In this document: positions 3,016 to 21,851 of the stretch, one piece after another
How positions within the stretch are numbered: the first letter of the stretch is position 1
How the letters are laid out: every line of letters starts with the position of its first letter
From: Nonlabens sp.
Lineage (GTDB): Bacteria > Bacteroidota > Bacteroidia > Flavobacteriales > Flavobacteriaceae
NCBI GenBank assembly: GCA_049671565.1
Contig: JBATVD010000039.1
Span: forward strand, 12,329-76,328
Length of the DNA: 64,000 nt
Direction: 5' to 3'
Translations under genes and position numbers: made by a program
Notes under the pieces: model-generated
The model's database searches: none
Seen by the model: the letters and a program-made list of their open reading frames with translations, nothing else
What the model was told of the DNA's origin: nothing

Positions 3016-4896
3016 CTATCCCATTTTTTCACTGAACTCAAGCCATTCCATCTCGGTTTCTTCAAGATCTGCTTTCACTTTTTCCAGCTCTATGGAGTTT
3101 TCGGTCATTTGCTCTGGATCAATCCCAGGATCTAGAAAACTGTTTTGCAGCTTCTTTTTTTGCTCTTCCAGCTTTTTGATTTTGTTTTCCAGTCGGGAGA
3201 GGTTTTTCTGCTGCTCTCGGCTAGGTCCCGAGCTTGAGTCCTCCTTTTTAAGAGAAGGTTCTTTTGCTGTTGGGGTCTCTGTTTTCTTTGAAATATCCTT
3301 TTCTAGTGAAATGTCTGTTGATCCTACATAAGCTCTGAAATCGCTGTAATTGCCAGGGAAATCAGTAATATTTCCGGAGGTATTAAACACAAAGAGATGA
3401 TCTACGATCTTATCCATAAAATAACGATCGTGGCTCACTACAATAATACAACCGGGAAAATCCATCAAAAAGTTCTCCAGCACGTTGAGCGTGGGAATAT
3501 CCAGATCGTTAGTAGGTTCATCCAAAATCAGGAAGTTGGGATTTTGAATCAGTATCGTGCACAAATACAGTCTTTTGCGCTCACCACCACTAAGTTTCTC
3601 AACGAAATCATGTTTCTTTTTACTATCAAACATGAAACGTTCCAGTAGCTGGCTTGCGCTTATTATCTTTCCTTTAGTAAGAGGTATGTACTCTCCATAT
3701 TCCTTGATCACATCGATTACCTTCTGGCCAGGATTGATATTGATACCTTTTTGAGTGTAGTATCCTATTTTAACGGTCTCACCAGTCACGATCTTACCCG
3801 TATCAGGCGGTAGCATGCCTGTTAGAAGATTTAGGAAAGTGGATTTCCCAGTACCATTTTTACCAATGATGCCAACGCGCTCACCACGCAAAAAGTTATA
3901 GGAGAAGTTTTCAAAAAGAGTATTCTCGCCAAAGGATTTGCTGATTTTGTGCAGCTCCACAACCTTGGTACCCATGCGCTCCATATTGATCTCAAGCTCT
4001 ACTTTGTGATCCTTGCGTCTATTCATTGCCGCCTCCTTGATTTGATAAAAATCATCGATGCGAGATTTGGACTTTGTGGTGCGTGCCTTAGGCTGGCGAC
4101 GCATCCAATTCAGTTCTTTTTTATAAAGTTGTTGCGCTTTTTCTTGAGTGGTTTGCTCCAGTATAAGGCGTTCTTCTTTTTTCTCAACATAATAGGAGTA
4201 GTTTCCTTTGTATGAGTATAGCTGGCCGTTATCTAATTCTATAATTTCAGTGCATACGCGATCTAGAAAATACCGGTCGTGAGTGACCATGAGGATTGTG
4301 TAATCTTCTTGTTTAAAATAACTCTCCAGCCACTCTATCATTTCTAGATCGAGATGGTTGGTAGGTTCATCCATGATTAGAAGTTGTGGATCAGAAAGCA
4401 AAGCTATGGCCATTGCTACACGCTTTTTCTGGCCTCCACTCAAGGTTTTTATCTTGATCGAGAGGTCGTCCAGTCTCAGTTTGGTTAGGATCTGTTTGTA
4501 TTTAGTTTCAAAATCCCATGCATTTGCAGCATCCATGCGATCCAGCGCATCTTGCATCTCATCAGCATCGTCTGGATTTGCCATGGCTTTTTCATACTGA
4601 GTAATAAGCTTTAAGGTGGGGATGTCGCTGTCTAAAATTACCTCTTCCACCGTCAAATCAGGCGCAAGGTCAGGCTCTTGGCTCAAGTAAGCCATGCGCA
4701 GATCGTTGCGGTAACTTACTTTTCCATCATCAGGCTGTTCCTTACCAGTAATTATGTGGAGAAGGGAGGTTTTTCCTGAACCATTTTTGGCAACGAAGCC
4801 TATTTTTTGACCTTGATTAATACCAAGGGATATATTTTTGAAGAGATATTTTTCTGCAAAGCTTCGGGAAACATTTTCAACCGTTAGGTAGTTCAT
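3016..4896 (-). CDS. ABC-F family ATPase (two NBDs, charged coiled-coil C-terminus, Uup-like)
   Basis: Two Walker A motifs (AKNGSGKTS, GKNGTGKST), two signature motifs (LSGGQKKR, LSGGERKR), no TM domain, and a K/E-rich tail. Confidence 0.85.
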   Translation of the reverse strand: MNYLTVENVSRSFAEKYLFKNISLGINQGQKIGFVAKNGSGKTSLLHIITGKEQPDDGKVSYRNDLRMAYLSQEPDLAPDLTVEEVILDSDIPTLKLITQYEKAMANPDDADEMQDALDRMDAANAWDFETKYKQILTKLRLDDLSIKIKTLSGGQKKRVAMAIALLSDPQLLIMDEPTNHLDLEMIEWLESYFKQEDYTILMVTHDRYFLDRVCTEIIELDNGQLYSYKGNYSYYVEKKEERLILEQTTQEKAQQLYKKELNWMRRQPKARTTKSKSRIDDFYQIKEAAMNRRKDHKVELEINMERMGTKVVELHKISKSFGENTLFENFSYNFLRGERVGIIGKNGTGKSTFLNLLTGMLPPDTGKIVTGETVKIGYYTQKGININPGQKVIDVIKEYGEYIPLTKGKIISASQLLERFMFDSKKKHDFVEKLSGGERKRLYLCTILIQNPNFLILDEPTNDLDIPTLNVLENFLMDFPGCIIVVSHDRYFMDKIVDHLFVFNTSGNITDFPGNYSDFRAYVGSTDISLEKDISKKTETPTAKEPSLKKEDSSSGPSREQQKNLSRLENKIKKLEEQKKKLQNSFLDPGIDPEQMTENSIELEKVKADLEETEMEWLEFSEKMG

Positions 4897-8860: not shown

Positions 8861-8868
8861 TATATTTG
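8861..8868 (+). promoter_or_regulatory. -7 box (TATATTTG) upstream of the wza-like gene
   Basis: Matches TAnnTTTG and lies 17 nt upstream of the ATG at 8885. Confidence 0.4.
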
Positions 8869-8878
8869 CAAGCTTAAT

Positions 8879-9700
8879 TTGATTATGAAAAATTTTTTTG
8901 CTCTCGTAATTCTGGCGCTGTTTGTAACTTCTTGTATACCTACTTCTCGCATTACTTATCTGCAAGATAAAGAAGAGTTTCCAAAAGATTCTCTACTTAC
9001 AATTCAGAGAGTACAGAGTCCTTACAGGCTGCAAGTAGGGGATATAATAGCAATAAACATTAAGGCCCCATTTGATAGCAATTTCGTTAGTGAGTTTCAA
9101 ATTGGTTCAGCTAGAGGAGGAGGAGGTAACGCTCAGCAGGTTTTACAAGGGGGCTTATATTTTACTGGTTTTACCATTAGTAATCGTGGTACCATCAGGG
9201 TGCCTCAATTAGGTGAAATATCTGTGGTTAGTAAAACTTTGGAAGAAGTGCGTTTACAAATTGAGGCTTTATTGTTTAAAACAAATTTTAAACAAACTTC
9301 TGATATTTTTGTAGACGTAAAGCTTGAGGGTTTACGATATACTATGGTTGGTGAAGTAAATAGTCCAGGTCAATACACTATTTTGAGAGACCAAGTAAGT
9401 ATCGTCGAAGCCGTGGCAGACGGTGGTGGAGTACCAGTGACCGGAGATCTTACTTCGGTGAAAATCATACGGCAATATGAGGGTGGGATCAAAACTCATA
9501 TACTTGATCTAACATCAATTGAGGTCATAAAATCCCCTTACTATTACTTGAGACCCAATGATATGATCGTTTTTAGTCCGCTCCCTCAAAAAGCTTTGGG
9601 TGTAGGGACTACTGGACTATCCACATTTACAACGGCCATCTCCATTTTTACTACAATTATCACTACTTATTTATTAATTGACAATTTATCTAATCGATAA
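8879..9700 (+). CDS. wza: polysaccharide export outer-membrane lipoprotein (OPX, Wza-like); likely start ATG 8885
   Basis: Signal peptide with lipobox (LFVTSC). A Poly_export-like segment (YRLQVGDIIAINI) is followed by an SLBB-like segment (GEVNSPGQY). Confidence 0.8.
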   Translation: MIMKNFFALVILALFVTSCIPTSRITYLQDKEEFPKDSLLTIQRVQSPYRLQVGDIIAINIKAPFDSNFVSEFQIGSARGGGGNAQQVLQGGLYFTGFTISNRGTIRVPQLGEISVVSKTLEEVRLQIEALLFKTNFKQTSDIFVDVKLEGLRYTMVGEVNSPGQYTILRDQVSIVEAVADGGGVPVTGDLTSVKIIRQYEGGIKTHILDLTSIEVIKSPYYYLRPNDMIVFSPLPQKALGVGTTGLSTFTTAISIFTTIITTYLLIDNLSNR

Positions 9701-12164
9701 GATGCAGGACGAGGATATTAATTCATTATCTGGGATTTTTGACATACGTCAATTTTTATCTAAAGTAATAAAGCTTTGGTGGCTTTTTATTTTAGTATTT
9801 GCCATTTGTTTCTCAATAGCCTATTACCAAAACCAATTTATCCAGACCTATTATGAGGTCGAATCATTGATCACAGTTACTGATAATTCAAGCCCTGGCC
9901 TTTCAGACAATACCAGCTTGACTTTTAATTGGGGAGGGACAACAGACAAAGTAACTACCGCAATAACTAAATATAAGTCCAGATCGCATAACGAACTTGT
10001 GGTAGATGAATTACAGATATATGTAGATTATTTGAAAAAAGGGGAATATTTTGATATTGACGCTTATAATAAAACTCCTTTTAAAATTCATGTGGATACT
10101 TCAAAAGCCCAGTTAAAAGGTGTTCCGATCCAATTTAACGTGCTTGATGAAAACCGTGTTAGGATAAGTGTTGACTTTCAAAAAAACAGTGCGAGTGGAT
10201 TTAATTATTCCACAAAGGAATCAGTGAGATTAAAAACTCCGATGGGACTTTTTTCTGATGTCTACAATTTTGGAGACAAGGTTGAGACTCCTTTTATGGC
10301 ATTTGAGATCAAACGCGTGCCTGAGCAGTTTAGAAAAGGGACTTGGGATGTTTACTTCAAAGACTACTGGTCTACAGTTAAAAATTATAAAGGAATATCT
10401 TTAGAGCAAACACCATCTGGTTCATCAATATTGACACTTACGCTTACAGGGACCAACAAACTCAAGTTGATTGATTACTTGAATGCAAGCTCTTCAGTTC
10501 TAGAAAAAGCAGAGCTTCTTAGGAAAAATTTATATGCGAACAGTCAAATCAGGTATATTGATAGCGTACTTAATGCTGATCTTCCAAAACTGGAGCAAGC
10601 AGAGAAAGCCTTAGAAGATTTTCAGTCTGAAAATGGAATTGTAGATGCATCTGCACAAATGTCCCAATTAAATAGCGAGCTATCAGTTCTAGAGTTAGAA
10701 GAGAAGCAGATTGAACGATCTAAAAAATATTACTATTCCCTCGAGGAGTTTTTGGAGAATAATACAGATTATACAAAAATTCAAGTACCTTCTGTAGTTG
10801 GGATAAATGAATCAAACATTGAACAATATGTAAGTCAGATCATCGAGAAGTCTCGAGAAAGAAATGTCAAACAATATTCTGTCAAAGAGAATACGTTTGA
10901 AATGGCTCGTTTAGATAGAGATATCGAAAGTTTGAGAAGACTGATCTTAGCAAACATTACGAGCTCCACAGAACTTCTCAATCAGGATTTGATTAGTAAT
11001 TTAGAAGAGCAAACTGAGGTAAAGCAGGAAATTAAAACACTTCCAGAGGAGCAGCAAGTGTTTTTAAGAATACAAAGAAACTTTGAGACTAGAAAATCGG
11101 AATTCAACAATTTGCTTAGAAGAAGATCCCAGGCGGAACTAGCTAAAGCATCAAATGTTTCGGACATTTATGTAATAGATAAAGCAAAAGATACTAACCA
11201 ATCAGGAAGGTCAAAAGATTCGACAGTTAACTATTTGTTGGCGCTTCTATTAGGATTGACAATTCCAACATTAGTGGCTTTTCTTCTTACATTATTTGAT
11301 AATTATATATATACTCCAAAACAAATAGAACGACTAACTACTATTCCCGTGCTTGGAGTTGTAGGAAAAGTAGATCACCCCAATAATCTAATCGTATACG
11401 AAAAGTCGAAATCTGCAGCCGCTGAAGCTTTTAGAGGATTAAGGTCGAGCCTTCACTTTATGTATGACCAAGATTCTCAAACCAATTCTAGGACTATCAT
11501 GGTTACGAGTAGTGTGAGTGGTGAAGGGAAAACTTTTTCCAGTATAAATCTAGCGTCTGTGTTTGCTTTAAGTGGTAAGAAAACAGTACTAGTAGGTTTA
11601 GATTTGAGAAAGCCAAAAATATTTGATGATTTTGATATTACAAATGACGTAGGTGTTTCTAATTACTTGGTGAAGGATTGTACCCTGCAGCAAATGACTA
11701 AGACAACTAAGATCAACAATCTTGATGTGATCCTATCTGGACCAGTTCCTCCTAATCCGAGTGAATTAATTTTGTCCGCTAAGATGAAGGAATTGATGAC
11801 GATTTTAAAGCAGGAGTACGATTATGTGATTTTGGATACGCCTCCTCTAGGACTGGTAGCAGATTCTATAGAATTAGCTAAGTATGCTGATGTGACACTT
11901 TATATGGTTAGACAAAAGTATACTAAAAAGATGATGCTTGATATTATCAACGAGAAGTATGCAAGAAAAGAGATAGATCGTGTCAGTATTTTATTCAATT
12001 ATTATAAGGATACAAAAGGTTACGGCTATGGTTATGGCTATGGTTACGGCTATGGTTATGGTTATGGCTATGGAGTCTATTCCAATGGGTATCATGAGCA
12101 AGACAGAGCTAGGGGCTTCAAATATGTTGTGAAAAAAATCCTAAAGCGTCTAATAAAAAAATAG
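9678..12164 (+). CDS. wzc: chain-length determinant / BY-tyrosine kinase (PCP-2a, Wzc-like); likely start ATG 9702
   Basis: N-terminal TM helix plus a long coiled-coil periplasmic region and a second TM helix. The cytoplasmic domain has Walker A SSVSGEGKTF, Walker B ILDTPP and a C-terminal Tyr cluster (GY)9. Confidence 0.85.
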   Translation: MTIYLIDKMQDEDINSLSGIFDIRQFLSKVIKLWWLFILVFAICFSIAYYQNQFIQTYYEVESLITVTDNSSPGLSDNTSLTFNWGGTTDKVTTAITKYKSRSHNELVVDELQIYVDYLKKGEYFDIDAYNKTPFKIHVDTSKAQLKGVPIQFNVLDENRVRISVDFQKNSASGFNYSTKESVRLKTPMGLFSDVYNFGDKVETPFMAFEIKRVPEQFRKGTWDVYFKDYWSTVKNYKGISLEQTPSGSSILTLTLTGTNKLKLIDYLNASSSVLEKAELLRKNLYANSQIRYIDSVLNADLPKLEQAEKALEDFQSENGIVDASAQMSQLNSELSVLELEEKQIERSKKYYYSLEEFLENNTDYTKIQVPSVVGINESNIEQYVSQIIEKSRERNVKQYSVKENTFEMARLDRDIESLRRLILANITSSTELLNQDLISNLEEQTEVKQEIKTLPEEQQVFLRIQRNFETRKSEFNNLLRRRSQAELAKASNVSDIYVIDKAKDTNQSGRSKDSTVNYLLALLLGLTIPTLVAFLLTLFDNYIYTPKQIERLTTIPVLGVVGKVDHPNNLIVYEKSKSAAAEAFRGLRSSLHFMYDQDSQTNSRTIMVTSSVSGEGKTFSSINLASVFALSGKKTVLVGLDLRKPKIFDDFDITNDVGVSNYLVKDCTLQQMTKTTKINNLDVILSGPVPPNPSELILSAKMKELMTILKQEYDYVILDTPPLGLVADSIELAKYADVTLYMVRQKYTKKMMLDIINEKYARKEIDRVSILFNYYKDTKGYGYGYGYGYGYGYGYGYGVYSNGYHEQDRARGFKYVVKKILKRLIKK
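12018..12074 (+). repeat. in-frame hexanucleotide repeat (GGYTAYGGYTAT-type) encoding (Gly-Tyr)x9 at the Wzc C-terminus
   Basis: Codons read directly: ggt tac ggc tat ggt tat ... gga. Confidence 0.95.
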
Positions 12165-12324: not shown

Positions 12325-13164
12325 ATGAAAGTACAAATCTATCAGAAAGATAATCAAACCAAGTTTTTTAAGCTGTTAAAAGAAAGTTTATTTGATCTTA
12401 TAGATTCTAGATTTTTGGCTTATCAATTAGCAAAAAGAGATATATCCGCAAAATACAGACAATCACTTTTAGGTATTGTATGGGCATTTATAACCCCAAT
12501 AGCTACTGCAATAGTTTGGATATTATTAAGTTCAAGTGGAACGGTAAATATTAAGGATACAAATATACCCTATCCTGTTTACGTGTTTGCGGGTACCCTA
12601 TTATGGTCAATCATTACTGAATCAATAAACGCTCCTATTCAAAGCACAAATGGTTCTAAGGGAATATTGACAAAAATTAATTTTCCTAAAGAGGCACTTA
12701 TCGTTTCTGGTGTTTTGAAACTATTATTTAATTCATTTATTAAAGTTTTATTGCTGCTCATTTTTGTTTTTGCCTATGGCGTCGATTTAAGCTGGGGCTT
12801 ATTGTTATTCCCATTTGCTATTATTGGCGGTTTATTGATAGGAAATACCATTGGATTGTTGTTAACGCCTATAGGGATGTTATATCAAGATGTATCTAAA
12901 TTGATAAGCTTCTCCTTACGATTTATAATGTACGTTACACCTGTAGTTTTTGCTGTCCCAGAAAGTGGAGCAATTAAAATAATTATGGAACTTAATCCCT
13001 TGACCCCAATTATTATGGTAGGACGTAATCTTGCGGTTGGTTTACCTTTGGAGTATTTAACCTACTTTATAATAGTATTCCTAGTTAGCATCCCACTATT
13101 TTTAATCGGTCTGGTATTTTACAGGTTGTCCATTCCTATTTTTGTGGAAAGATTAAGTGCTTAA
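12325..13164 (+). CDS. wzm: ABC-2 type polysaccharide transporter permease (Wzm/KpsM-like)
   Basis: 279 aa with about 6 hydrophobic helices. The N-terminal LAKRDISAKYRQSLLGIVW is typical of ABC-2 permeases. Its end overlaps the downstream ATPase. Confidence 0.85.
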   Translation: MKVQIYQKDNQTKFFKLLKESLFDLIDSRFLAYQLAKRDISAKYRQSLLGIVWAFITPIATAIVWILLSSSGTVNIKDTNIPYPVYVFAGTLLWSIITESINAPIQSTNGSKGILTKINFPKEALIVSGVLKLLFNSFIKVLLLLIFVFAYGVDLSWGLLLFPFAIIGGLLIGNTIGLLLTPIGMLYQDVSKLISFSLRFIMYVTPVVFAVPESGAIKIIMELNPLTPIIMVGRNLAVGLPLEYLTYFIIVFLVSIPLFLIGLVFYRLSIPIFVERLSA

Positions 13165-14392
13165 AATGGCAAATAATTCAACTCAGAATATCCACAGAGA
13201 TAAAAATTTAGAGGAGGATGTTTTAATTGAGGTTTCAGATTTGTCAAAAAAATTCTGTAAAGATCTTAAAACCAGTTTGTATTATGGGGTCAAGGACCTG
13301 CTGACCAGTTATAAGGATTCCACATCAAGCATACTTCGTCCTAAAGAATTTTGGGCAGTCAAGGGTGTCAGCTTCAAGCTTAAACGTGGAGAGTGTTTAG
13401 GTTTGATAGGACATAATGGTGCTGGAAAATCTACATTGTTAAAGATGCTCAATGGACTTATTAATCCAGATGAAGGTCGGATAAAGATGAAGGGACGAGT
13501 GGGTGCTCTAATTGAATTGGGCGCTGGCTTCAACCCTATCTTAAGTGGTCGGGAAAACATTTACAATAATGGTGCTGTTTTAGGATTCTCTAAAAAAGAA
13601 ATTGATCAAAAACTATCTTATATAATCGATTTTGCCGAACTGAAAGAGTTCATTGATATGCCAGTGCGCAATTATTCAAGTGGCATGAAAGTTAGGTTGG
13701 GCTTTGCAGTAGCCGCGCAGATGAATCCTGATATATTGATTATCGATGAAGTTTTAGCTGTTGGCGATTTAGGCTTCGTTCTTAAATGCTTTAAAACTAT
13801 TGATGATATATTGCCAAAGACAGCGGTCATATTTGTTGCTCACAGTATGCCTACTGTTTCCCGTATTTGCTCCAAAATCATGTTATTAGAGAATGGGCAT
13901 GTGAAATATCAAGGCAACAATGTTTCAGAAGGAATCGACATTTATTATACGAGGTTTGCTGATAATGACGCAAATATTGTACTGAATGATGGTAGGATAC
14001 TATTTGGGTCAATGCTCTTAAATACTGATACTTATAGAGAAGGTGTTCAATGTTTGAGCTGGGGTGACGACCTGAACTTGAAATGTGATTTTGAGGTTGT
14101 AGATAGAAAAGCAAAATCCGTAAAAGTGGTGCTAACTTTGTCTGATAAAGAACAACGGCCGGTAGCTGTTCTTGATAATGACGCTGTAGAGCTCAACAAC
14201 AATCCGAATTGCGTACTGAATTTTAGCACCAGTAACATCCAACTCTCTAAAGGAGTTTACTCCATAAACATAACTGTCAACCTTGATGGTTCTCCCTGTT
14301 ACAGGGTCAATAGCCTTTTAGTTTTTCAAGTACTACATCATAAAGAAACTTGGCATCCTTTTATGCTAAAAACTGAAGTAACCTCTGGTTAG
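13157..14392 (+). CDS. wzt: polysaccharide ABC transporter ATP-binding protein with C-terminal extension (Wzt copy 1)
   Basis: Walker A GHNGAGKST, signature YSSGMKVRL, Walker B ILIIDEVLAVGD. An extra C-terminal domain of about 150 aa looks beta-rich. Confidence 0.85.
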   Translation: MLKMANNSTQNIHRDKNLEEDVLIEVSDLSKKFCKDLKTSLYYGVKDLLTSYKDSTSSILRPKEFWAVKGVSFKLKRGECLGLIGHNGAGKSTLLKMLNGLINPDEGRIKMKGRVGALIELGAGFNPILSGRENIYNNGAVLGFSKKEIDQKLSYIIDFAELKEFIDMPVRNYSSGMKVRLGFAVAAQMNPDILIIDEVLAVGDLGFVLKCFKTIDDILPKTAVIFVAHSMPTVSRICSKIMLLENGHVKYQGNNVSEGIDIYYTRFADNDANIVLNDGRILFGSMLLNTDTYREGVQCLSWGDDLNLKCDFEVVDRKAKSVKVVLTLSDKEQRPVAVLDNDAVELNNNPNCVLNFSTSNIQLSKGVYSINITVNLDGSPCYRVNSLLVFQVLHHKETWHPFMLKTEVTSG

Positions 14393-14676
14393 AAATCTAA
14401 TTTTATTATTTCCGAATCATAAATTATCGGTGGTCAGAAGAGTTTGAAAGGCCATTTGGTAATTCGGTTATTTGAATTTTTACGGTTTTTCTCAACCTGT
14501 CTTTTCCTGTCTCAAATTTAAAGACACAGCACTTACAATTTGATTTGAAAATATTGTGTAAGCTAGCCTTAGTATTCAAGATGTTATCCAGTATTGTTTT
14601 TTGATATTCCTATGAATAAGCATATCCGTATTTATTATAGATCATATGTTGATGAAACTTGAGTGTTTGATTGATG

Positions 14677-14694
14677 TCGCTTTCGCGAAAGCGA
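14677..14694. repeat. iterated palindrome copy (18 bp TCGCTTTCGCGAAAGCGA), intergenic
   Basis: Read directly; a perfect palindrome in the wzt1-wzt2 spacer. Confidence 0.95.
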
Positions 14695-14922
14695 ACTAGT
14701 TATAATCAATAGCCCTGCATATTTATTTCTTTCAAATTCCAAAAGTATGGAACAAACTCGATCAAAGAGATGGCAAGGATTTTTATCACTGTCGTTATTT
14801 AAGCATGCTATCTTTATAAGATATTCCTTACTTTCTAACCCGTTTATTAAAGGCAAGAAAAAATGATTTCTAGTTTTTAAATCAATTTGACTTGTAATGA
14901 ATAAATCCATTTGCACAATGGC

Positions 14923-14930
14923 TATCTTTG
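14923..14930 (+). promoter_or_regulatory. -7 box (TATCTTTG) upstream of the second wzt
   Basis: Matches TAnnTTTG and lies 23 nt upstream of the ATG at 14954. It follows a 560-bp non-coding spacer. Confidence 0.4.
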
Positions 14931-14953
14931 TAAATTGATAGAAGAATTAAAAA

Positions 14954-16192
14954 ATGAGTTCTACACCTATTTCAGTACCCCATGACAAAAATGAAACGTT
15001 ATATCAAAATGACGATATACTTGTAGAAGTTTCAGGCCTCTCAAAAAAGTTTTGTAAAGACTTGAAGACCAGTTTGTGGTATGGAGTAAAGGATTTGATA
15101 GCGGGCTATTCTGGGAATAGCAATAGTGAACTTAGGCCTAAGGAATTCTGGGCGGTTAAAGATGTTAGCTTTACTTTAAAACGAGGGGAGTGTTTAGGAT
15201 TAATAGGACACAACGGAGCAGGAAAATCAACCTTATTAAAAATTTTAAATGGATTAATTAATCCAGATGCAGGAAAAATCGTGATGAAAGGTCGCGTAGG
15301 AGCCTTAATTGAATTAGGTGCGGGTTTTAATCCTGTTTTAAGTGGACGTGAGAATATATATAATAATGGAGCCATTTTGGGTTTCTCTAGAAAAGAGATT
15401 GAAAACAAATTAGAAGAGATCATTGAATTTGCTGAACTCAGGGAATTTATAGATATGCCCGTGCGCAACTATTCTAGTGGTATGAAGGTGCGTCTGGGAT
15501 TTGCTGTCGCTGCACAAATGGAGCCTGATATCCTAATTGTGGATGAGGTGCTTGCTGTTGGTGATATGGGGTTCGTTTTGAAATGCTTTAAAACCATTGA
15601 TGAAATTTTACCGAAAACAGCTATTATTTTTGTGTCACACTCCACTCAGATGGTATCTCGTATTTGTACTCAAGTTTTGCTCATGGACAAAGGGAAGTCA
15701 AGATATCAGGGGACAGATGTTTCAAAAGGTATAGATCTTTATTATCAAAGATTTGGTGATATTAAGATGTCTACACTGATGGAGTCAAGCAAAATCAAGT
15801 ACCGCAGTTGCTCTATAAATGGTCTAGAAACTAAAACTGGGGTTCCAAAAATTAATTGGTTGGATGATGTGCGCTTTGAATTGACTTTTGAAAACTTAGA
15901 TATGACGCAATCTCCTTTCTTGTTAATTTCTATCTTTGACAAGGAACAAAGACCCGTAGCTATTGTAAATAATGACCTACAGCCCACTAAAATTGAAAAG
16001 GGAACTTTTTCTTTTAAGGTAGACCTGAAAAAGATTCAGTTGTCTAAAGGTATTTATCACTTAAACATATACTTATCTGATAAGAAGAGGAGTTCTCCTA
16101 TATTAAAGGTAAATAACGTGGGTTCATTTCAGATCATTTCAGAAATGGATATTTCACCACCATTATTGTTAGATAGCTATGTGGAAGTATAA
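14954..16192 (+). CDS. wzt: polysaccharide ABC transporter ATP-binding protein with divergent C-terminal extension (Wzt copy 2)
   Basis: It has the same NBD motifs as copy 1, and the NBDs are roughly four-fifths identical by eye. The C-terminal ~150 aa share only short islands (DKEQRPVA, IQLSKG[VI]Y). Confidence 0.85.
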   Translation: MSSTPISVPHDKNETLYQNDDILVEVSGLSKKFCKDLKTSLWYGVKDLIAGYSGNSNSELRPKEFWAVKDVSFTLKRGECLGLIGHNGAGKSTLLKILNGLINPDAGKIVMKGRVGALIELGAGFNPVLSGRENIYNNGAILGFSRKEIENKLEEIIEFAELREFIDMPVRNYSSGMKVRLGFAVAAQMEPDILIVDEVLAVGDMGFVLKCFKTIDEILPKTAIIFVSHSTQMVSRICTQVLLMDKGKSRYQGTDVSKGIDLYYQRFGDIKMSTLMESSKIKYRSCSINGLETKTGVPKINWLDDVRFELTFENLDMTQSPFLLISIFDKEQRPVAIVNNDLQPTKIEKGTFSFKVDLKKIQLSKGIYHLNIYLSDKKRSSPILKVNNVGSFQIISEMDISPPLLLDSYVEV

Positions 16193-16311
16193 TTTGAACC
16201 AATAACTCAATCAATATATCTTTTTATTTTAGATGTGTGGTGATTTATCAAAACGAAGTTTTTGTTATTAAAATGTAAGCAGATTTTTATTTGTTTTTTA
16301 ACCCTAAGTAA

Positions 16312-17385
16312 ATGATTAATGTAACGCAAACCTTCTTGCCTGACCAAAATGAATTTCAAGCTATTTTGAAAACCGCTTGGGATAATAAATGGTTGACCAA
16401 TCGAGGACAATTGGTAAAGGAGTTGGAATATAAGTTAATCAATTTTTTAGGGGTCAACAATTTGACTTTAACTACAAATGGAACCTTGCCTATTCAAATA
16501 GCTATTAAGTCTATGGGGCTTGAGGGTGAGATTATAACCACCCCTTTTTCTTACGTAGCCACAACATCAAGCGTTGTATGGGAGAATTGCACTCCCGTAT
16601 TTGTGGATATTGATGAAGATTTTTTTACGATTGACGAAAATAAAATAGCATCTGCAATAACCTCTAAGACTTCAGCGATTTTAGCAACCCATGTTTTTGG
16701 AAATCCTTGTAATATAGAGGCTATTGAAAAAATTGCACACAAACACAATATCAAGGTGATTTATGATGCTGCGCATTGCTTTGGTGTGAAGTACAAGGGG
16801 CAATCCATTTTCAATTATGGCGATGTTAGTACATGTAGTTTTCATGCCACTAAAATTTTTCATACTGGGGAAGGCGGGTGCTGGATCACTAATAATGATG
16901 AGTTGCAAAAGAGTCTATTTTTTCATCATAATTTCGGTCATGATGGTCCAGTTGACTTTTATGATGTGGGAATAAATGCGAAGATGAGTGAGTTACAGGC
17001 AGCCATGGGACTTGCCGTTTTTAAACATTTAGATGAAATTTTTCAGGCAAGGGAAAAAGTAGTTGATTCTTACAAAAAATTTCTAGCTGGCACCTCTTTG
17101 AAAATGATCAAGCTACGTCCAGGGACAGATTGGAACTTTCATTACTTTCCAGTTGTTTTTGAGTCAGAATCCCAATTGTTGAGAGTCAAACAGGTCTTGA
17201 ATGACCATGCTATCAATCCACGCAGGTACTTCTATCCGAGTTTAAATACTTTGAAATATGTAAGCTATCAAAAAATGCCTGTTTCTGAAAAAATCGCCTC
17301 AACCATTTTATGTCTTCCAAATTATGTAGGACTGGCTGGAAAAGATTTAAAACGGATAACTGATTTAATTAAAATGTCTTTATGA
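16312..17385 (+). CDS. DegT/DnrJ/EryC1/StrS-family PLP-dependent sugar aminotransferase
   Basis: The motif SFHATKIFHTGEGG carries the PLP-lysine. The N-terminus (FLPDQNEF...) is typical of the family. Confidence 0.8.
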   Translation: MINVTQTFLPDQNEFQAILKTAWDNKWLTNRGQLVKELEYKLINFLGVNNLTLTTNGTLPIQIAIKSMGLEGEIITTPFSYVATTSSVVWENCTPVFVDIDEDFFTIDENKIASAITSKTSAILATHVFGNPCNIEAIEKIAHKHNIKVIYDAAHCFGVKYKGQSIFNYGDVSTCSFHATKIFHTGEGGCWITNNDELQKSLFFHHNFGHDGPVDFYDVGINAKMSELQAAMGLAVFKHLDEIFQAREKVVDSYKKFLAGTSLKMIKLRPGTDWNFHYFPVVFESESQLLRVKQVLNDHAINPRRYFYPSLNTLKYVSYQKMPVSEKIASTILCLPNYVGLAGKDLKRITDLIKMSL

Positions 17386-18011
17386 TCTTCTCAAATAAAA
17401 AGCCAAAGGTTTTTTGCATAGGTTTTAATAAAACGGGTACCACTACCATAAAATATACTTTAGAGGAGCATAACTATAAAATGAATGTTCAGAGTAAAGC
17501 ATCGGTTTTTTTGAAAGATTGGAAGACTCGAAATTTTAAACCATTAATCAAATATTGCGAAAAATATGAAGCGTTTCAAGACTTTCCTTTTTCATTCCCA
17601 TATACATACATTGCTTTAGACCTGGCCTTTCCAAACAGCAAATTTATTTTGACGGTACGAGACACTCCAGAAGTTTGGTATAAGTCAATAACTACCTTCC
17701 ACGGTAAGTTATGGGCAAATGGAAAAACGCCCTCAAAGGAAGATTTGATGAATGCAGTTAGACACTATAAAGGAAGGCCTTGGGAAGTTAATAGATCAAT
17801 ATTCAAAACTCCAGAGAGTGATCCTTATAATGAAGAAATCCTTAAGGAACAATATGTAGATCATATAAAGTCTGTGAAAGAGTATTTCAGGTTTAGGCCA
17901 GATGATTTTTTAGTAATAAATGTCTCTAAGAATGATGATTATCGTAAAATGTGTGATTTTTTGAAGGTTAAACCAAAATTTGAGAAATTTCCTTGGAAAA
18001 ACAAAACTTGA
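17382..18011 (+). CDS. sulfotransferase family protein
   Basis: 5'-PSB-like GFNKTGTTT and 3'-PB-like RDTPEVWYKS. A 4-nt ATGA overlap links it to the upstream gene. Confidence 0.7.
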   Translation: MIFSNKKPKVFCIGFNKTGTTTIKYTLEEHNYKMNVQSKASVFLKDWKTRNFKPLIKYCEKYEAFQDFPFSFPYTYIALDLAFPNSKFILTVRDTPEVWYKSITTFHGKLWANGKTPSKEDLMNAVRHYKGRPWEVNRSIFKTPESDPYNEEILKEQYVDHIKSVKEYFRFRPDDFLVINVSKNDDYRKMCDFLKVKPKFEKFPWKNKT

Positions 18012-18017
18012 ATTGTC

Positions 18018-19190
18018 ATGAAGACTAAAAAGACTATAAAAATTGGTAATGAGAAAAAACTTTCATTCGGCTTTCATGCGTACAGAGTAAATGAAAAGAC
18101 AAAAGTTGTAAAGGATGAAGAGTCATTCCTTCCTAAACAAGACAATGATGGCGTACTTAATAAGTTTATTCATATAGGATATCCAAAAAGTGGCTCAACG
18201 GTTCTTCAAAATGGTTTTTTTGGCAAACACCCTGAAATACTTAACCTAGGTTGTGGAAATAGGAGTGATCAAACTTACTGGGATGATCTTGGATATATTT
18301 CTAGAGAAATCAACATCGCCATGGAGGTGGATTTGAGATACCGCAATTCCATCAGTTACAATGCAAAAAAGGTGAGGTCTAATTTTGAGAGCTATTTTGA
18401 ACAAGCAAAAAATTCAAACATCATTCGTACCGTAGGTATTTCTAACGAGAATTATAGTTTCCAATGGAACTACGGAATCGATATTGAAGAAAAAGCAAAG
18501 AGGTTAAAGGGTATTTTTGGTAGAGACACTAAAATTTTAGTTGTGTTGAGAGAGCAGATCGACTTGATAGCATCTTTATACAAAGAGCAAATAAGATTTG
18601 GTTATTCGGGCTCTATCAATGATTTTTTTAATTACCTATGGGATTATCAAGACAGGAGTGCCCTTCATGAATTTTGTTTTGACAAAGTAATTGATGTATA
18701 CGCGAGCTATTTCGGTAAGGAAAATATACATATTGTGCCCTTTGAATCCTTTAAAAAAGACAATGAAGTTTTTCTTAACAATATTGCTCGTGTGCTGGAT
18801 GTGGAAACAGATCTAATTACCAAAATTGAGACAATCTACAACCGCCAGCTCAGTGATCAGGCATTGGAGGTCAAAAAAATGATGAATGAACGATATAGTC
18901 ATTCTTTCGGTAATGGTTTTTACCAGGTGTTTGATAATCATAGGTACGTTCCCTATTTTACTGAAGAGTTAGGTAAGGAAGTTCCCCTTGAAGTTCACTT
19001 GGATTATCAGGTAAGACACCATTTGGTCAAGGCGGCAGAGAAAATAGCATCTTTGTCCAATGTGGAAAAAATTGATTTGAACATAGATAGCAACAATTTA
19101 AAACGCTTTTCTAAACTATTTAGTGAATCCAATAATAAGTTGGAAAAAGCTTATAAGCTAGATTTGAAACAATATAAATATTTATCGTGA
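18018..19190 (+). CDS. sulfotransferase domain protein
   Basis: 5'-PSB-like GYPKSGSTV and 3'-PB-like LREQIDLIAS. Confidence 0.65.
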   Translation: MKTKKTIKIGNEKKLSFGFHAYRVNEKTKVVKDEESFLPKQDNDGVLNKFIHIGYPKSGSTVLQNGFFGKHPEILNLGCGNRSDQTYWDDLGYISREINIAMEVDLRYRNSISYNAKKVRSNFESYFEQAKNSNIIRTVGISNENYSFQWNYGIDIEEKAKRLKGIFGRDTKILVVLREQIDLIASLYKEQIRFGYSGSINDFFNYLWDYQDRSALHEFCFDKVIDVYASYFGKENIHIVPFESFKKDNEVFLNNIARVLDVETDLITKIETIYNRQLSDQALEVKKMMNERYSHSFGNGFYQVFDNHRYVPYFTEELGKEVPLEVHLDYQVRHHLVKAAEKIASLSNVEKIDLNIDSNNLKRFSKLFSESNNKLEKAYKLDLKQYKYLS

Positions 19191-19876
19191 TGGGTAATAC
19201 TATTGCCATAATGCAACCCTATATTTTTCCCTACATAGGATACTTTCAGCTTATCAACTATGTTGATAAGTTCATATTTTATGATGATGTCACATTTATC
19301 AAGCAAGGCTGGATCAATAGAAACAAAATCACTATTAATGATAAGGAAGTTTTCTTCACGATTCCTCTATCCAATGCTAGTTCATATACCTTGATTCAGG
19401 ACATAAAGATCAACCAAAACTTGTTCAGCAAAGTCAAAAAGAAACTTTACAAAAGCATCAAGCAGTCCTACGGGAAAGCTCCGTTTTTCAATGAGGCATA
19501 TGAGATTATTGAAAAAACCTTTGAGCTAAATACAGATAGCATGAGCGAGATGGCAAAATATAGTGTTAAGCAGGTATCAGAATACCTTGAGCTAAATACT
19601 GAGTTTGCTAAAAGTCAAAACGCTTATGATAATTTAAGTTTAAGCGGTCAGGATAGGGTGATCGATATTGCAACTCAAGAAAAGGCAGTTCATTACGTGA
19701 ACCCAATAGGAGGAAAAGAATTATATAGTTCAGATATATTTCGCAAGAATAATCTGGATTTATCATTTATTAAAGTCAACGATAGTTTAGATAAAAAGCT
19801 TATAATTGATCTATTAATGAATCATAGTAAAGAACAGGTTAGAAGTATTTTGAATCAATATACAATTGTAAAATGA
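19187..19876 (+). CDS. WbqC-family protein
   Basis: The N-terminal MQPYIFPYIGYFQLI is the WbqC-family hallmark as I recall it. Confidence 0.65.
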   Translation: MMGNTIAIMQPYIFPYIGYFQLINYVDKFIFYDDVTFIKQGWINRNKITINDKEVFFTIPLSNASSYTLIQDIKINQNLFSKVKKKLYKSIKQSYGKAPFFNEAYEIIEKTFELNTDSMSEMAKYSVKQVSEYLELNTEFAKSQNAYDNLSLSGQDRVIDIATQEKAVHYVNPIGGKELYSSDIFRKNNLDLSFIKVNDSLDKKLIIDLLMNHSKEQVRSILNQYTIVK

Positions 19877-20874
19877 AAAAAGTTATTGTCTTAGGTGCTA
19901 CGGGTTCTCTGGGAACCTATTTTGTAGATTATTTGGTAGATCAAGGAGTTGAAGTTATTGCTTGTGGTAGAAAAACCGAGGTAAAAGATTACTATCAAAG
20001 CAGGAATATAGAATATATTTCTGTAGATATGACTAAGCAAGAAGACTTTGCCAAGCTTCCGCAAAAAGATGTTTCCGCTATTGTATTAATTTCAGGAGCC
20101 ATGCCATCTAGGATGGAAGGTTATAAGCCACACACTTATCTAGATGTAAATGTCATGGGGACATTAAATGTGTTAGAATTCGCTCGTAAGACCGGTGTAG
20201 AAAAATTTCTTTTTACACAATCCCACTCAGACGTTGCAGGTCACTGGAACACTGGAGAGGTGATTAAGCCAGACGCACCAAGAAGTTTGAATCTCAAAGG
20301 TGATCATGCAGTTTACATTATTTCTAAGAATACAGCAGTAGATTTAATTGAGCATTACAGACAAGACTACGGTCTCAAAACTTTCATTTTCAGACTACCT
20401 ACAATTTATCTCTACAGACCTATATTAGAAATGTTTGTGAATGGTAAAAATGTCCCAATTGGATATAGGTACTTTATGGATAAAGCAATGAAGTCAGAAC
20501 CTATTGAAATCTGGGGTGACCCTTCTGTTTCAAAAGATATTGTTTATGTTCAGGACTTTAATCAAATGCTCTATAAAGCTTTACAATCAAATCTGGACAA
20601 AGGTTTCTATAACGTGGCAAGAGGAGAGTCTGTTACCTTAGAAGATCAAATACGAGGCATAATCGAAGTGTTTTCACCAGACGACAATCCATCAGAAGTC
20701 ATATATAAGCCAGAGAAAAACAATCAGAATTCTTACCATTATGATATAAGTAATGCAGTAGAAGAGTTGGGCTATTCCCCAAAATTTGATTATTTGACCA
20801 TGTTAAAAGATATGGCCAAAGAAATGAAAGGAAGTCGATTTGAGCACCTTAAAAATTCTAATGTATCGATTTGA
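19873..20874 (+). CDS. NAD-dependent epimerase/dehydratase (extended SDR)
   Basis: Rossmann motif GATGSLG and catalytic YIISK (YxxxK). Confidence 0.75.
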   Translation: MKKVIVLGATGSLGTYFVDYLVDQGVEVIACGRKTEVKDYYQSRNIEYISVDMTKQEDFAKLPQKDVSAIVLISGAMPSRMEGYKPHTYLDVNVMGTLNVLEFARKTGVEKFLFTQSHSDVAGHWNTGEVIKPDAPRSLNLKGDHAVYIISKNTAVDLIEHYRQDYGLKTFIFRLPTIYLYRPILEMFVNGKNVPIGYRYFMDKAMKSEPIEIWGDPSVSKDIVYVQDFNQMLYKALQSNLDKGFYNVARGESVTLEDQIRGIIEVFSPDDNPSEVIYKPEKNNQNSYHYDISNAVEELGYSPKFDYLTMLKDMAKEMKGSRFEHLKNSNVSI

Positions 20875-21851
20875 TGAATGGTACAGTTACTGAAAAACCA
20901 TTAGTAAGCATATCTTGTATAACATTTAATCACGCACAATATATAGAGAAGGCGATTAACGGCTTTTTAATGCAAAAGACCGACTTTGCATTTGAAGTAC
21001 TCATTCACGATGATGCATCTACAGATGGTACTGAAGAAATTATAAGGGAATTTGAGCAAAAATTCCCTTCCATTATAAAGCCTCTCTACGAAGAAACAAA
21101 TCAATGGGTAAAAGGTAGAAAAGGGTCTGTTGTGTTCAATTTTCCAAGAGCTCAAGGAAAATACATGGCTCTGTGCGAGGGTGATGATTACTGGACAGAT
21201 CCATTTAAGTTACAAAAACAAGTGGACTTTTTAGAAAGGAATCCAGAGTTTGGATTGTGTTTTCATAAAGTAAGCCTGATACATCCTGATGGGGCTATTA
21301 CAGATGACTATAAAACCAAAGTTCCAGAACACTATCAAACCCATTCAGACTTAGCAGAAAAAGGTAATTATATTCAAACACCTTCTGTGATGTTTAGAAA
21401 AGAATATTTGTTATCAACTGAAGAAGCTAACCTAAGTCCGCTAGGAGATCTATTCATGTACATGATTGTTACCAGAAACAGCAAAATAGGTTATATAGAA
21501 GACACCATGGCAGTTTATAGGATTGGTTCTGGAATCTGGAGTGTTCAGAATGATTATGAAAGGAATATCAAAACCGCCCTGACTTTTGCGCTACTTATCA
21601 AAACAAGATTGTTTACTAGAGAAATTAATGACATACTCAACGCTAGAATTTTAAATATCATAACTAGATTTATTGATCAATTAAAATCAACTGATTTGGA
21701 AAAGCTGAGTATTGTACCAAAAGTCACCGAACAAATATTTGCGAAGCTCCTGTCTGAAATAGAGCTCCACAAAAATAGAACCAATCTGCCTTTTAAGGTT
21801 CAATTGAAGCGATATGCGAATTCAAAATTGAAGTCAATGGGTTTAAAATAG
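20871..21851 (+). CDS. glycosyltransferase family 2
   Basis: Motifs SCITFNHAQYI...HDDASTDGT and CEGDDYWTDPFKLQKQVDFL (DxD region). Confidence 0.8.
   Translation: MMNGTVTEKPLVSISCITFNHAQYIEKAINGFLMQKTDFAFEVLIHDDASTDGTEEIIREFEQKFPSIIKPLYEETNQWVKGRKGSVVFNFPRAQGKYMALCEGDDYWTDPFKLQKQVDFLERNPEFGLCFHKVSLIHPDGAITDDYKTKVPEHYQTHSDLAEKGNYIQTPSVMFRKEYLLSTEEANLSPLGDLFMYMIVTRNSKIGYIEDTMAVYRIGSGIWSVQNDYERNIKTALTFALLIKTRLFTREINDILNARILNIITRFIDQLKSTDLEKLSIVPKVTEQIFAKLLSEIELHKNRTNLPFKVQLKRYANSKLKSMGLK

Follow-up and report, generated by a model that had tools for sequence, protein, structure and literature searches.

Why does a polysaccharide exporter with a single permease gene, wzm, come with two ATPase genes of the Wzt type? 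The question is raised by a 64,000-nucleotide stretch of Nonlabens sp. DNA (the window), in which the following features surround the transporter:

8879–9700, + strand: wza, outer-membrane export protein (Pfam Poly_export/SLBB)
9678–12164, + strand: wzc with a YG-repeat tail, tyrosine-kinase co-polymerase (Pfam Wzz/GNVR/AAA_31)
12325–13164, + strand: wzm, the sole ABC-2/type-V permease gene of the window (phmmer)
13166–14392, + strand: wzt1, 408 aa, NBD ~13214–13951 and CBD ~13952–14389 (ABC_tran, CBD model)
14393–14953, no strand: non-coding spacer, 561 bp
14678–14693, no strand: perfect 16-bp copy of the palindrome CGCTTTCGCGAAAGCG
14867–14936, + strand: conserved block, 94% identical to a contig from another sample (L082), with the −7 box TATCTTTG (14923–14930)
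14954–16192, + strand: wzt2, 412 aa, NBD ~15011–15748 and CBD ~15749–16189, resident ortholog
16312–21851, + strand: biosynthesis module (Pfam: DegT aminotransferase, two sulfotransferases, WbqC, epimerase, GT2)

The ATPase open reading frames span 13157–14392 (411 aa from a GTG) and 14954–16192 (412 aa). For wzt1 the ATG at 13166 is probably the true start rather than the GTG, because it lies 1 nt past the wzm stop, is used by an independent gene call and is the start of P0001, a 93% identical Wzt1 ortholog. Both proteins match ABC_tran (PF00005; 2.5e-24 for Wzt1 and 3.6e-24 for Wzt2), and for both the best PDB sequence match is A. aeolicus Wzt (8DKU_A, about 4.6e-57 to 4.8e-57), followed by TarH/TagH and M. 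tuberculosis Wzt/RfbE. The Walker A sequence GHNGAGKST, the signature YSSGM, the Walker B sequence ILI(I/V)DE and the H-loop histidine in (A/S)HS occur in each copy, and at the 181 columns with at least 95% conservation Wzt1 deviates at six and Wzt2 at seven. Both are intact NBD–CBD ATPase genes with canonical motifs and NBDs of the Wzt/TagH clade, in agreement with the first-pass annotation of this DNA.

That annotation had also placed only one permease before the ATPase pair, and our searches confirmed this. The adjacent partner is encoded by ORF 12325–13164, which matched A. aeolicus Wzm (6M96_B, E = 6.6e-13, phmmer) as well as TarG and M. tuberculosis Wzm; it gave no match in Pfam, and an NCBIfam Wzm/RfbD match (2.5e-15) fell under the cutoff. 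No second copy or remnant of wzm was found in the window by tblastn. Of the 162 fetched loci, 132 encode a Wzm homolog (48–75% identical) upstream of wzt on the same strand. The system is a polysaccharide exporter of the Wzm/Wzt (type-V ABC) kind, in which a single permease gene is accompanied by two complete ATPase genes. A Group 2 capsule exporter of the KpsMT type (KpsT without a CBD, accompanied by KpsE/KpsD) was ruled out, as both ATPases have a CBD and the accessories are wza/wzc.

Overall, Wzt1 and Wzt2 are 60% identical (BLASTP, E = 2e-172). Identity over the NBDs (residues 20–265) is 78.5% (193/246), close to the four-fifths previously given for the first ~265 residues, and over the C-terminal domains (residues 266–411) it is 31% (44/143). 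Three blocks quoted earlier, RGECLGLIGHNGAGKSTLLK, MPVRNYSSGMKVRLGFAVAAQM and GRVGALIELGAGFNP, are identical between the two ATPases, and the islands DKEQRPVA and IQLSKG[VI]Y do occur in both C-terminal regions. At the nucleotide level the NBDs are ~72% identical and much of the CTD is unalignable. The contrast between a conserved NBD and a diverged C terminus is thus real, but it is family-wide rather than peculiar to this pair: compared with Wzt of other genera, either copy is ~76–80% identical in the NBD and 32–36% in the CBD. The two C-terminal domains are about 30% identical to each other, where the family medians are 32–36%, and the Wzt2 NBD is closer to those of many other genera (85–87%) than to that of Wzt1 (79%).

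The genes had been described as tandem paralogs. A recent tandem duplication is refuted by several observations. Synonymous sites in the NBD are saturated (pS = 0.84), so that dN/dS per domain is not estimable between wzt1 and wzt2; other genera are equally near; and neighbour-joining bootstraps for Wzt1 and Wzt2 as sisters are 35% for the NBD and 0% for the CTD. Moreover, the syntenic locus L081 (wza-wzc-wzm-wzt-DegT-ST4-ST1-WbqC-epimerase-GT2) has a single wzt, the ortholog of wzt2. Its product, P0122, is 77% identical to Wzt2, and the gene starts 1 nt past the wzm stop. The window and L081 are collinear over 15023–21237 at 73% (blastn), with the same gene order downstream of wzt2. The saturated sites, the family-wide split in identity and the single wzt of L081 together indicate that wzt1 and the spacer, 1.8 kb in all, were added where the ancestral wzt had lain. 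Here wzt2 is the resident ortholog and belongs with the downstream DegT/sulfotransferase/WbqC module, while wzt1 is an extra copy holding the ancestral slot at the end of the wza–wzc–wzm run. The resident gene now heads the biosynthesis module at a distance of 1.8 kb from wzm and is preceded by a promoter-like −7 box.

The combination of one wzm and two wzt was not met in the 160 related loci, none of which has a second wzt within 7–8 kb. The arrangement recurs unchanged in a Logan assembly of run SRR28062231, possibly of the same organism as the window, with 100% identity across 9.2 kb. The contig L082, 2 kb long, carries the end of wzm, a wzt1 ortholog and the 3′ half of the spacer, and stops 18 bp short of the expected wzt2 start. 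Between Wzt1 and its L082 ortholog, dS is ~0.95 and dN/dS is 0.024 in the NBD and 0.075 in the CTD; values in this range (0.02–0.08) point to strong purifying selection on Wzt1.

The spacer (GC 0.296) had been credited with its own −7 box, and a match to the Bacteroidetes consensus, TAnnTTTG, indeed lies 31 nt before the wzt2 ATG. Of the 17 genes in the locus, five have such a box 18–31 nt upstream of the start, where the background density is 0.92 per kb; those comparable to that of wzt2 precede cysQ, wza (at 8861, 18 nt 5′ of the start) and two genes after intergenic gaps (26147 and 37737). The spacer has stop codons in all six frames, and its longest open stretch, a 93-aa antisense ORF at 14635–14916, is disrupted in L082 by indels of 13, 1 and 2 bp. 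Its 3′ half (14644–14936) is conserved in L082, at 94% within the 70-bp block and ~72% over the rest of the alignable part, compared with 85.6% for the wzm end and wzt1 coding sequence; the 5′ half resembles none of the fetched loci. Rfam gave no family at threshold for the spacer. Likewise, no terminator-like site was predicted after wzt1 or in the spacer, so that the two genes may not be regulated independently, a point against separate specificities.

The first-pass reading depended on C-terminal regions that fold like Wzt carbohydrate-binding domains, and this is what structure prediction gave. AF2 monomer models of both C-terminal domains are confident (pLDDT 91.1 for Wzt1 and 89.5 for Wzt2) and form beta-sandwiches. 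The best Foldseek PDB matches were 8DL0, 6O14 and 5HNO for Wzt1 and 8DKU, 8DKY, 2R5O and 5HNO for Wzt2; the top 8 (Wzt1) and top 15 (Wzt2) were all Wzt CBDs or full-length WzmWzt, from a set comprising 8DL0, 8DKU, 8DKY, 6O14, 5HNO/5HNP and, for Wzt2 only, E. coli O9a 2R5O (TM-scores 0.49–0.73; E from 9e-8 to 5e-6). Pfam Wzt_C (PF14524) was below its gathering threshold of 30.4 bits for both Wzt1 (19.0 bits, 1.5e-3) and Wzt2 (16.5 bits, 8.5e-3), most homologs have a precomputed PF14524 match, and the family HMM alignment spans the CBD of 8DKU_A (residues 32–373). The two domains are divergent Wzt_C members, which the Pfam model itself misses but which modelled fold and transitive homology identify.

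Specificity-pocket positions were mapped through an HMM/MAFFT alignment to A. aeolicus of ~15% identity, without coordinates. In this mapping L300 corresponds to T in Wzt1 and S in Wzt2, N313 to D and N, A348 to T and Y, and H350 to N and S; the trap loop is LDG in Wzt1, three residues shorter, and DKKRS in Wzt2. The predicted cap-pocket positions thus seem to differ between the two proteins. W362, the methyl-binding tryptophan of A. aeolicus, is replaced by R in Wzt1 and K in Wzt2. The conserved islands, invariant in ~120 homologs, map outside the specificity pocket: their counterparts in A. aeolicus Wzt are the NBD-docking loop and the core of the fold. Neither the docking loop nor the hinge-helix Tyr-Tyr varies.

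The surrounding marine flavobacterial locus, for a sulfated polysaccharide, is 47 kb long and has ~15 glycosyltransferases. Candidate glycan modifiers are five sulfotransferases, four confident (17382, 18018, 43197 and 44363) and one weak (38806), and two MBOAT acyltransferases; PAPS-synthesis genes are also present. Of 133 related loci, 91 have DegT downstream and 46 an ST4 sulfotransferase. No capping enzyme, either a WbdD-like kinase/methyltransferase or a Kdo transferase, was recognised by Pfam among ORFs of at least 120 aa between 5 and 53 kb, and this speaks against two specificities in one exporter. A terminal sulfate as the cap, as had been proposed, is pure speculation: all 179 homologs share the cationic pocket residue, whereas an ST4-type sulfotransferase is nearby in fewer than half of the related wzt loci.

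In our view the best reading, to which we give about an even chance, is that the one Wzm channel exports two differently terminated polymers by way of the two Wzt. The CBD recognises the cap, determines cap-dependent export and can act in trans (PMC9445017), which makes one channel with two specificity modules mechanistically reasonable. Wzt1 and Wzt2 would each form a homodimer on one shared Wzm dimer, either being able to engage the channel through the invariant gate-helix region, NBD and CBD docking loop. Through its divergent cap-pocket positions, each could then pick out, among the undecaprenyl-linked polymers of the locus, one with a different terminus, so that export specificity would follow whichever Wzt is expressed or bound.

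The pair might instead reflect a replacement in progress, in which wzt1 arrived by recombination and wzt2 is redundant or losing CBD function, kept mainly as the head of the downstream operon. We regard this as improbable, though as the strongest competitor. It would explain why wzt1 sits exactly in the ancestral slot under strong purifying selection, and why Wzt2 alone is substituted at two otherwise near-invariant CBD positions, R385K (R in 179/179 homologs) and W401S (W in 173/179), where its ortholog P0122 retains R and W; these changes could mean relaxed constraint on Wzt2 instead of a second specificity. Relatives of Wzt2 in a 5.8-billion-protein collection reach no more than 77% identity, against the 93% of the Wzt1 ortholog. 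However, lysine is a conservative replacement for arginine, the wzt2 ORF is of full length and has complete catalytic motifs and hardly more deviations than wzt1, and the AF2 confidence of its CBD matches that of Wzt1. The 94% block before wzt2, conserved in spite of the synonymous divergence of ~0.95 between wzt1 orthologs, further argues for a maintained wzt2 promoter.

An obligate or preferential Wzt1–Wzt2 heterodimer on one Wzm dimer, its strand-swapped CBDs fixing the active/inactive asymmetry of A. aeolicus WzmWzt, seems less probable again. It draws on the dimerisation of CBDs through C-terminal strand exchange and on the A. aeolicus CBD dimer, which lies asymmetrically on one NBD and binds O antigen with a single CBD (PMC9445017). 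The similar NBDs with identical docking loops and the adjacency of the genes, with no predicted terminator between them, would also suit it. Yet both NBDs are fully canonical, without the degenerate site typical of heterodimeric ABC pairs, and wzt2 has a promoter-like element of its own. The swap segments are unlike, HHKETWHPFMLK in Wzt1 and SEMDISPPLLLD in Wzt2, the latter lacking the conserved Trp. The pair is not co-conserved in relatives, and the single wzt in the 160 loci and in the syntenic relative indicates that each copy descends from a homodimeric protein. Finally, two strain variants of wzt might have been concatenated in a metagenome assembly, as the window resembles a metagenome-derived contig and its only fully identical match possibly comes from the same organism. 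We consider this very improbable: the nucleotide divergence of the NBDs and the unalignable CTD make collapse or concatenation of strains implausible, the spacer between the copies is unique, and L082 independently has the wzm end, wzt1 and spacer 3′ half at 85.6% nucleotide identity.

Two specificity modules on one channel would set the locus apart from its closest known counterparts. It resembles the CBD-dependent WzmWzt systems (A. aeolicus 8DKU, 8DL0, 7K2T and 6O14; E. coli O9a 2R5O; K. pneumoniae O12/R. terrigena 5HNO) in its homologous NBD, jelly-roll CBD and adjacent wzm, and A. aeolicus in particular in the hinge-helix Tyr-Tyr and a conserved loop at the position of the NBD-docking loop (302–308). 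Those systems have one NBD–CBD gene per wzm, in contrast to two here, and sequence identity to the solved CBDs is just 8–18%. Unlike a classical O-antigen cluster with a WbdD-type terminator, the transporter lies beside wza/wzc, PAPS-synthesis and sulfotransferase genes. The wza-wzc-wzm-wzt core is shared with marine Flavobacteriaceae loci (for example L081, Psychroflexus, Winogradskyella, Aequorivita and Aestuariibaculum; Wzm 48–75%, Wzt 54–77%), but all 160 of these have one wzt and lack the divergent extra copy between wzm and the resident wzt, with its promoter-like spacer. Genomes with two wzm–wzt pairs, such as Burkholderia pseudomallei (wzm/wzt and wzm2/wzt2), likewise encode two ATPases of the Wzt type, which presumably handle different glycans; there each Wzt has its own Wzm at a separate locus, whereas those of the window would have to share one.

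Details of CBD complementation and domain swaps in E. coli O8/O9a Wzt are reportedly given by Cuthbertson et al. In contrast to such laboratory constructs, the window would hold a natural version with two full-length wzt. Common to both would be a generic NBD and Wzm with a specific, separately suppliable CBD (PMC9445017). If the proposed function is correct, the locus is a natural case of a generic channel and NBD with two full-length, specificity-bearing Wzt.

The palindrome in the spacer has nine matches in the window, against 0.01 expected. It is lineage-specific: absent from 161 other loci, it occurs at the same position in L082.

The exporter genes under study belong to a ∼47-kb polysaccharide locus (window 5032–53085) that is carried on a single strand (+). 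It holds the following genes.

cysQ, cysC, cysD and cysN, + strand: PAPS supply
wza, wzc, wzm, wzt1 and wzt2, + strand: export genes
DegT aminotransferase, two sulfotransferases, WbqC and an epimerase, + strand
∼15 GT2 and GT4 glycosyltransferases, + strand
two MBOAT acyltransferases, + strand, with an unannotated ORF after each
sulfotransferases beyond the first two, + strand: two confident and one weak
GNAT, deacetylase and a Wzy_C/ligase-like protein, + strand

No Wzx flippase was seen in the ∼5–53 kb locus, and the ABC transporter is therefore the only inner-membrane exporter encoded there. The GC content is ∼35% and the best homologs come from marine Flavobacteriaceae, the nearest being Psychroflexus. 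The region looks like a flavobacterial locus for a sulfated polysaccharide whose export depends on the ABC transporter. A statement within a 2021 paper holds that, among bacteria, sulfated extracellular polysaccharides are unique to cyanobacteria (PMC8205485).

The permease gene and the two ATPase genes are arranged as follows.

12325–13164, + strand: wzm, the only such permease gene in the window
13157–14392, + strand: wzt1 ATPase ORF; the likelier start, ATG 13166, gives 408 aa
561 bp: non-coding spacer between wzt1 and wzt2
14954–16192, + strand: wzt2 ATPase ORF

The ATG at 13166 lies 1 nt past the wzm stop. The same start was chosen in an independent gene call on the identical assembly, and it matches the start of P0001, a 93% identical Wzt1 ortholog. 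The first-pass annotation had described tandem ATPases with a conserved nucleotide-binding domain (NBD) and a diverged C-terminus behind a single Wzm, and both points were borne out. Wzt1 and Wzt2 are 60% identical overall (BLASTP, E = 2e-172), with 78.5–79% identity in the NBD (residues 20–265) and 30–31% in the C-terminal domain (CTD; residues 266–411). The sequence blocks quoted in that annotation were all found, and tblastn detected no second copy or remnant of wzm in the window. The Wzm protein matches Aquifex aeolicus Wzm (6M96_B, 6.6e-13), TarG and Mycobacterium tuberculosis Wzm; it has no match in Pfam, with no ABC2_membrane hit even at E = 1. L081 and L164, the two relatives checked, have 279-aa Wzm proteins that likewise escape Pfam. 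All of these are recognisable only via PDB sequences and a sub-threshold NCBIfam match, a gap in family-model coverage of flavobacterial Wzm. Separately, the C-terminus of Wzc (9678–12164) forms an unusually regular (YG)n tail, YGYGYGYGYGYGYGYG, which is its tyrosine-rich phosphorylation cluster.

A recent tandem duplication was considered as the source of the two copies and rejected. Synonymous sites between wzt1 and wzt2 are saturated (pS 0.84 in the NBD and 0.68 in the CTD), so the pairwise dN/dS suggested in the first-pass annotation cannot be estimated. Against 181 family members, the median identities are 75.6% (NBD) and 36% (CTD) for Wzt1 and 80.5% and 32% for Wzt2, and the Wzt2 NBD is 85–87% identical to many proteins of other genera. 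The identity between the copies is thus about that of either one to the family, and proteins of other genera are as near to each copy as the other copy is. In neighbour-joining trees, Wzt2 falls with P0122, the single Wzt of the syntenic relative L081, within a clade holding a Psychroflexus halocasei protein, and Wzt1 groups with P0001 on a long branch apart from it. In bootstraps on a subsample of sequences, Wzt1 and Wzt2 paired in 35% (NBD) and 0% (CTD) of replicates. Decisive against the duplication was L081 itself, an 82-kb MAG contig with the order wza-wzc-wzm-wzt-DegT-ST4-ST1-WbqC-epimerase-GT2, as in the window. This contig is collinear with window 15023–21237, and its single wzt starts 1 nt past the wzm stop and encodes a protein 77% identical to Wzt2.

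By this synteny, with one wzt2-like wzt in the relative, wzt2 is the resident ortholog, and wzt1 plus the spacer (13165–14953, ∼1.8 kb) is an addition in the slot of the ancestral wzt. That the L081 lineage instead lost wzt1 is a formal possibility but the less favoured one, because a second Wzt-like NBD was found in 0/160 related loci (80 GTDB species-representative loci and 80 metagenomic ones retrieved with Wzt1; flanks of 7–8 kb). The only extra NBD matches in these loci were an unrelated ABC-F gene and one contig-end repeat. Two Aestuariibaculum proteins, P0036 and P0037, lie on different contigs of different assemblies (L005 from strain SC17 and L164 from GCA_039541475.1) and are taken to be strain variants at one locus, not two loci in one genome. 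No donor lineage for wzt1 was identified among its homologs; P0001 aside, none exceeds 65% identity overall or 44% in the CTD. Searching with the Wzt2 CTD alone returned two weak fragments only, an effect of the word prefilter. The GC, GC3 and codon usage of wzt1 are typical of the locus and give no compositional sign of horizontal transfer. Literature searches returned no described one-Wzm/two-Wzt system; the traces were a passing remark on two wzt genes in Massilia violaceinigra and separate wzm2/wzt2 loci in Burkholderia.

The first-pass annotation took the diverged C-termini for putative glycan-binding domains, a view that a fold unlike Wzt-type carbohydrate-binding domains (CBDs) would have refuted; structure prediction and profile comparison show the CBD fold. 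Pfam Wzt_C scores are below the cutoff of 30.4 bits for both proteins (19 for Wzt1 and 16.5 for Wzt2); precomputed PF14524 matches exist for most of the ∼180 homologs. AlphaFold2 models from residue 240 onward, based on alignments of ∼120 sequences, have pLDDT values of 91.1 (Wzt1 CTD) and 89.5 (Wzt2 CTD), with nearly superimposable beta-sandwich secondary-structure strings. In Foldseek searches of the PDB, the top-ranking matches of either CTD were Wzt CBDs or full-length WzmWzt: A. aeolicus 8DL0, 8DKU, 8DKY and 6O14, Klebsiella pneumoniae O12 5HNO/5HNP and, for Wzt2 only, also Escherichia coli O9a 2R5O (E 9e-8 to 3e-5, TM-score up to 0.73). Unrelated beta-sandwiches, NPC2 and RhoGDI among them, came lower in the ranking. 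The family profile aligns to 8DKU_A residues 32–373, that is, through the CBD; sequence-only PDB searches with the CTDs alone as queries gave nothing relevant.

Alignments of ∼120 homologs contain a few (near-)invariant islands: DKEQRP, (Q)LSKGxY, an Arg with an Asn two residues on, a C-terminal W.P and an IDxYYxxF hinge. When mapped onto A. aeolicus Wzt by HMM and MAFFT alignments, at low identity and without coordinates, DKEQRP aligns with the loop 302–308 (RDRFGQD), the YY with the hinge helix, Tyr233 included, and G..Y with the fold-core residues G341 and Y343. The A. aeolicus CBD loop 302–308 docks on the NBD hinge helix and the H-loop helix (PMC9445017). Since the islands align with the docking loop, hinge helix and fold core, they are read as parts that probably must fit the highly conserved NBD, not as specificity determinants. 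The positions that line the cap pocket, where the non-reducing end of the glycan is bound, are compared below through the same low-identity alignments.

Residues of Wzt1 and Wzt2 aligned with cap-pocket positions of A. aeolicus Wzt
L300: Wzt1 T; Wzt2 S
N313: Wzt1 D; Wzt2 N
T346: Wzt1 N; Wzt2 N
A348: Wzt1 T; Wzt2 Y
H350: Wzt1 N; Wzt2 S
Trap loop 352–356: Wzt1 LDG, 3 residues shorter; Wzt2 DKKRS
W362, methyl lid: Wzt1 R383; Wzt2 K385

Because these aligned residues differ, the pocket periphery would differ between Wzt1 and Wzt2 around a conserved polar and cationic core. The position aligned with W362 is Arg in 179/179 other flavobacterial Wzt homologs and is flanked by conserved Asn residues. 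In the marine Flavobacteriaceae CBDs, a cationic residue is invariant at the place that the methyl-binding Trp takes in A. aeolicus, a hint that the whole CBD subfamily may recognise a terminal group that is anionic or polar instead of a methyl cap. A terminal sulfate as the cap, raised in the first-pass annotation, would fit a cationic lid residue but has no specific support; sulfotransferases accompany wzt in only 46/133 related loci, although the cationic lid residue is family-invariant.

The two ORFs are full-length, their Walker A, signature, Walker B and H-loop motifs are canonical, and each copy deviates at only 6–7 of the 181 columns with a conservation of at least 95%. For dN/dS, ortholog comparisons were used in place of wzt1 versus wzt2. 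Against its ortholog on L082, a 2-kb contig from a different sample (85.6% nucleotide identity), wzt1 has a dS of ∼0.95 and dN/dS values of 0.024 (NBD) and 0.075 (CBD). The added copy, CBD included, is under strong purifying selection. Between Wzt2 and its distant ortholog P0122, synonymous sites are saturated; protein identity is 86% in the NBD and 60% in the CTD. Substitutions at invariant CBD positions, R385K and W401S, occur in the window Wzt2 alone and could reflect altered specificity or relaxed constraint.

The 3′ half of the spacer is kept in L082, including a 70-bp block with 94% identity that ends 18 bp 5′ of the wzt2 ATG. The predicted −7 box of wzt2 falls inside this block: TATCTTTG at 14923–14930, in keeping with the first-pass annotation, fits the Bacteroidetes consensus TAnnTTTG. 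Boxes of this type occur at window 5007, 8861, 14923, 26119 and 37711, each 18–31 nt upstream of a start codon, and precede cysQ, wza, wzt2, the GT2 gene at 26147 and the GT4 gene at 37737, respectively. They mark 5/17 of the gene starts that follow intergenic gaps, with a background of 0.92 per kb. This distribution suggests that the locus may be split into at least five transcription units, in which wzt1 would be expressed with wza-wzc-wzm and wzt2 would head a unit with the DegT/sulfotransferase module. No intrinsic terminator or terminator-like hairpin was predicted after wzt1, and read-through is therefore possible. A sigma-70 promoter scan stayed at background level, sigma-70 being the wrong model for Bacteroidota. 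Six-frame translation of the spacer gave short open stretches only, tblastn found no remnant of a second wzm or other gene in it, and Rfam gave sub-threshold chance matches only. An antisense 93-aa ORF (14635–14916) was rejected, as it has no homolog in the fetched loci and L082 carries 13-, 1- and 2-bp indels there and no ORF.

The arrangement is real and rare and its parts are well known: it is a CBD-dependent Wzm/Wzt exporter in a variant form, which does not make it a new kind of system. That it arose as an assembly artefact is highly improbable, given that L082 independently carries the wzm end, wzt1 and the 3′ half of the spacer, and given the 72% nucleotide identity between the copies. 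The best-supported reading, held with moderate confidence, is that Wzt1 homodimers and Wzt2 homodimers take turns on one Wzm dimer. Both Wzt proteins would fit the same channel through the conserved NBD, gate-helix region and CBD docking loop and, with CBD pockets that differ, would recruit lipid-linked polymers of different termination made by the unusually large locus. CBDs set cap-dependent export and act in trans (PMC9445017), which agrees with alternate use of one channel by two homodimers.

Tentatively, the separate predicted promoters may add a layer of control: if wzt1 shares its transcript with the export genes, and wzt2 shares one with a single biosynthesis module, the cell could switch or mix the sulfated polymers leaving the cytoplasm through the choice of ATPase it makes. 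In its radical form, this becomes a Wzt1–Wzt2 heterodimer whose mixed CBD pair would hard-wire the active/inactive asymmetry of A. aeolicus WzmWzt. The closely similar NBDs would suit such a pairing and the predicted separate transcription units would suit it less, and we consider the heterodimer improbable. It is somewhat less doubtful, while still unlikely, that wzt2 is a displaced copy, redundant or decaying; R385K and W401S could reflect relaxed constraint, to be set against the full-length ORF, the canonical motifs and the conserved block before its start codon.

CBD-dependent Wzm/Wzt transporters are the model for how cells certify that a glycan is finished and ready for export. The evidence that specificity resides in the CBD, with a generic NBD and channel, has come mainly from engineered chimeras and in-trans constructs. 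A natural locus in which a single permease has to serve two full-length Wzt proteins that differ in their CBDs would allow this modularity to be tested directly by genetics, and could show a second export specificity gained via a 1.8-kb cassette instead of a whole transporter. The locus also points to the under-studied ABC-transporter-dependent, probably sulfated, polysaccharides of marine Flavobacteriaceae.

Among the related loci, ∼20 have a wzm–wzt gap of ∼0.5 kb or more, including L005, L010, L013, L037, L041, L043, L046 and L049, with gaps of 450–600 bp. In L164 (Aestuariibaculum), the gap holds a 60-aa gene (4544–4726) of the 23S_rRNA_IVP (four-helix-bundle) family, not a second wzt. The wzm–wzt junction seems to be a recurrent insertion point. 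At the start of one MAG contig (L015, 1–780), a ∼600-bp direct repeat of the first ∼29 wzt codons and upstream sequence gives an apparent Wzt N-terminal fragment upstream; the repeat could stem from the assembly or from a real duplication of the 5′ end.

The 64 kb hold nine copies (0.01 expected) of a perfect 16-bp palindrome with an NruI site in it, CGCTTTCGCGAAAGCG, at 2848, 14678, 21926, 23150, 37539, 45507, 52220, 54914 and 60588. Four copies are intergenic (14678, 21926, 37539 and 60588), and those at 14678 and 37539 lie 172–245 bp upstream of −7 boxes. Five overlap ORFs, with 23150 in a GT2 gene, 2848 in a methyltransferase gene and 45507 and 52220 in the 5′ parts of ORFs. The flanks are not conserved. 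Outside the window, only the closest relative, L082, has the palindrome, and 161 related flavobacterial loci lack it; it may be a REP-like element specific to the lineage, or else a site bound by a regulator.
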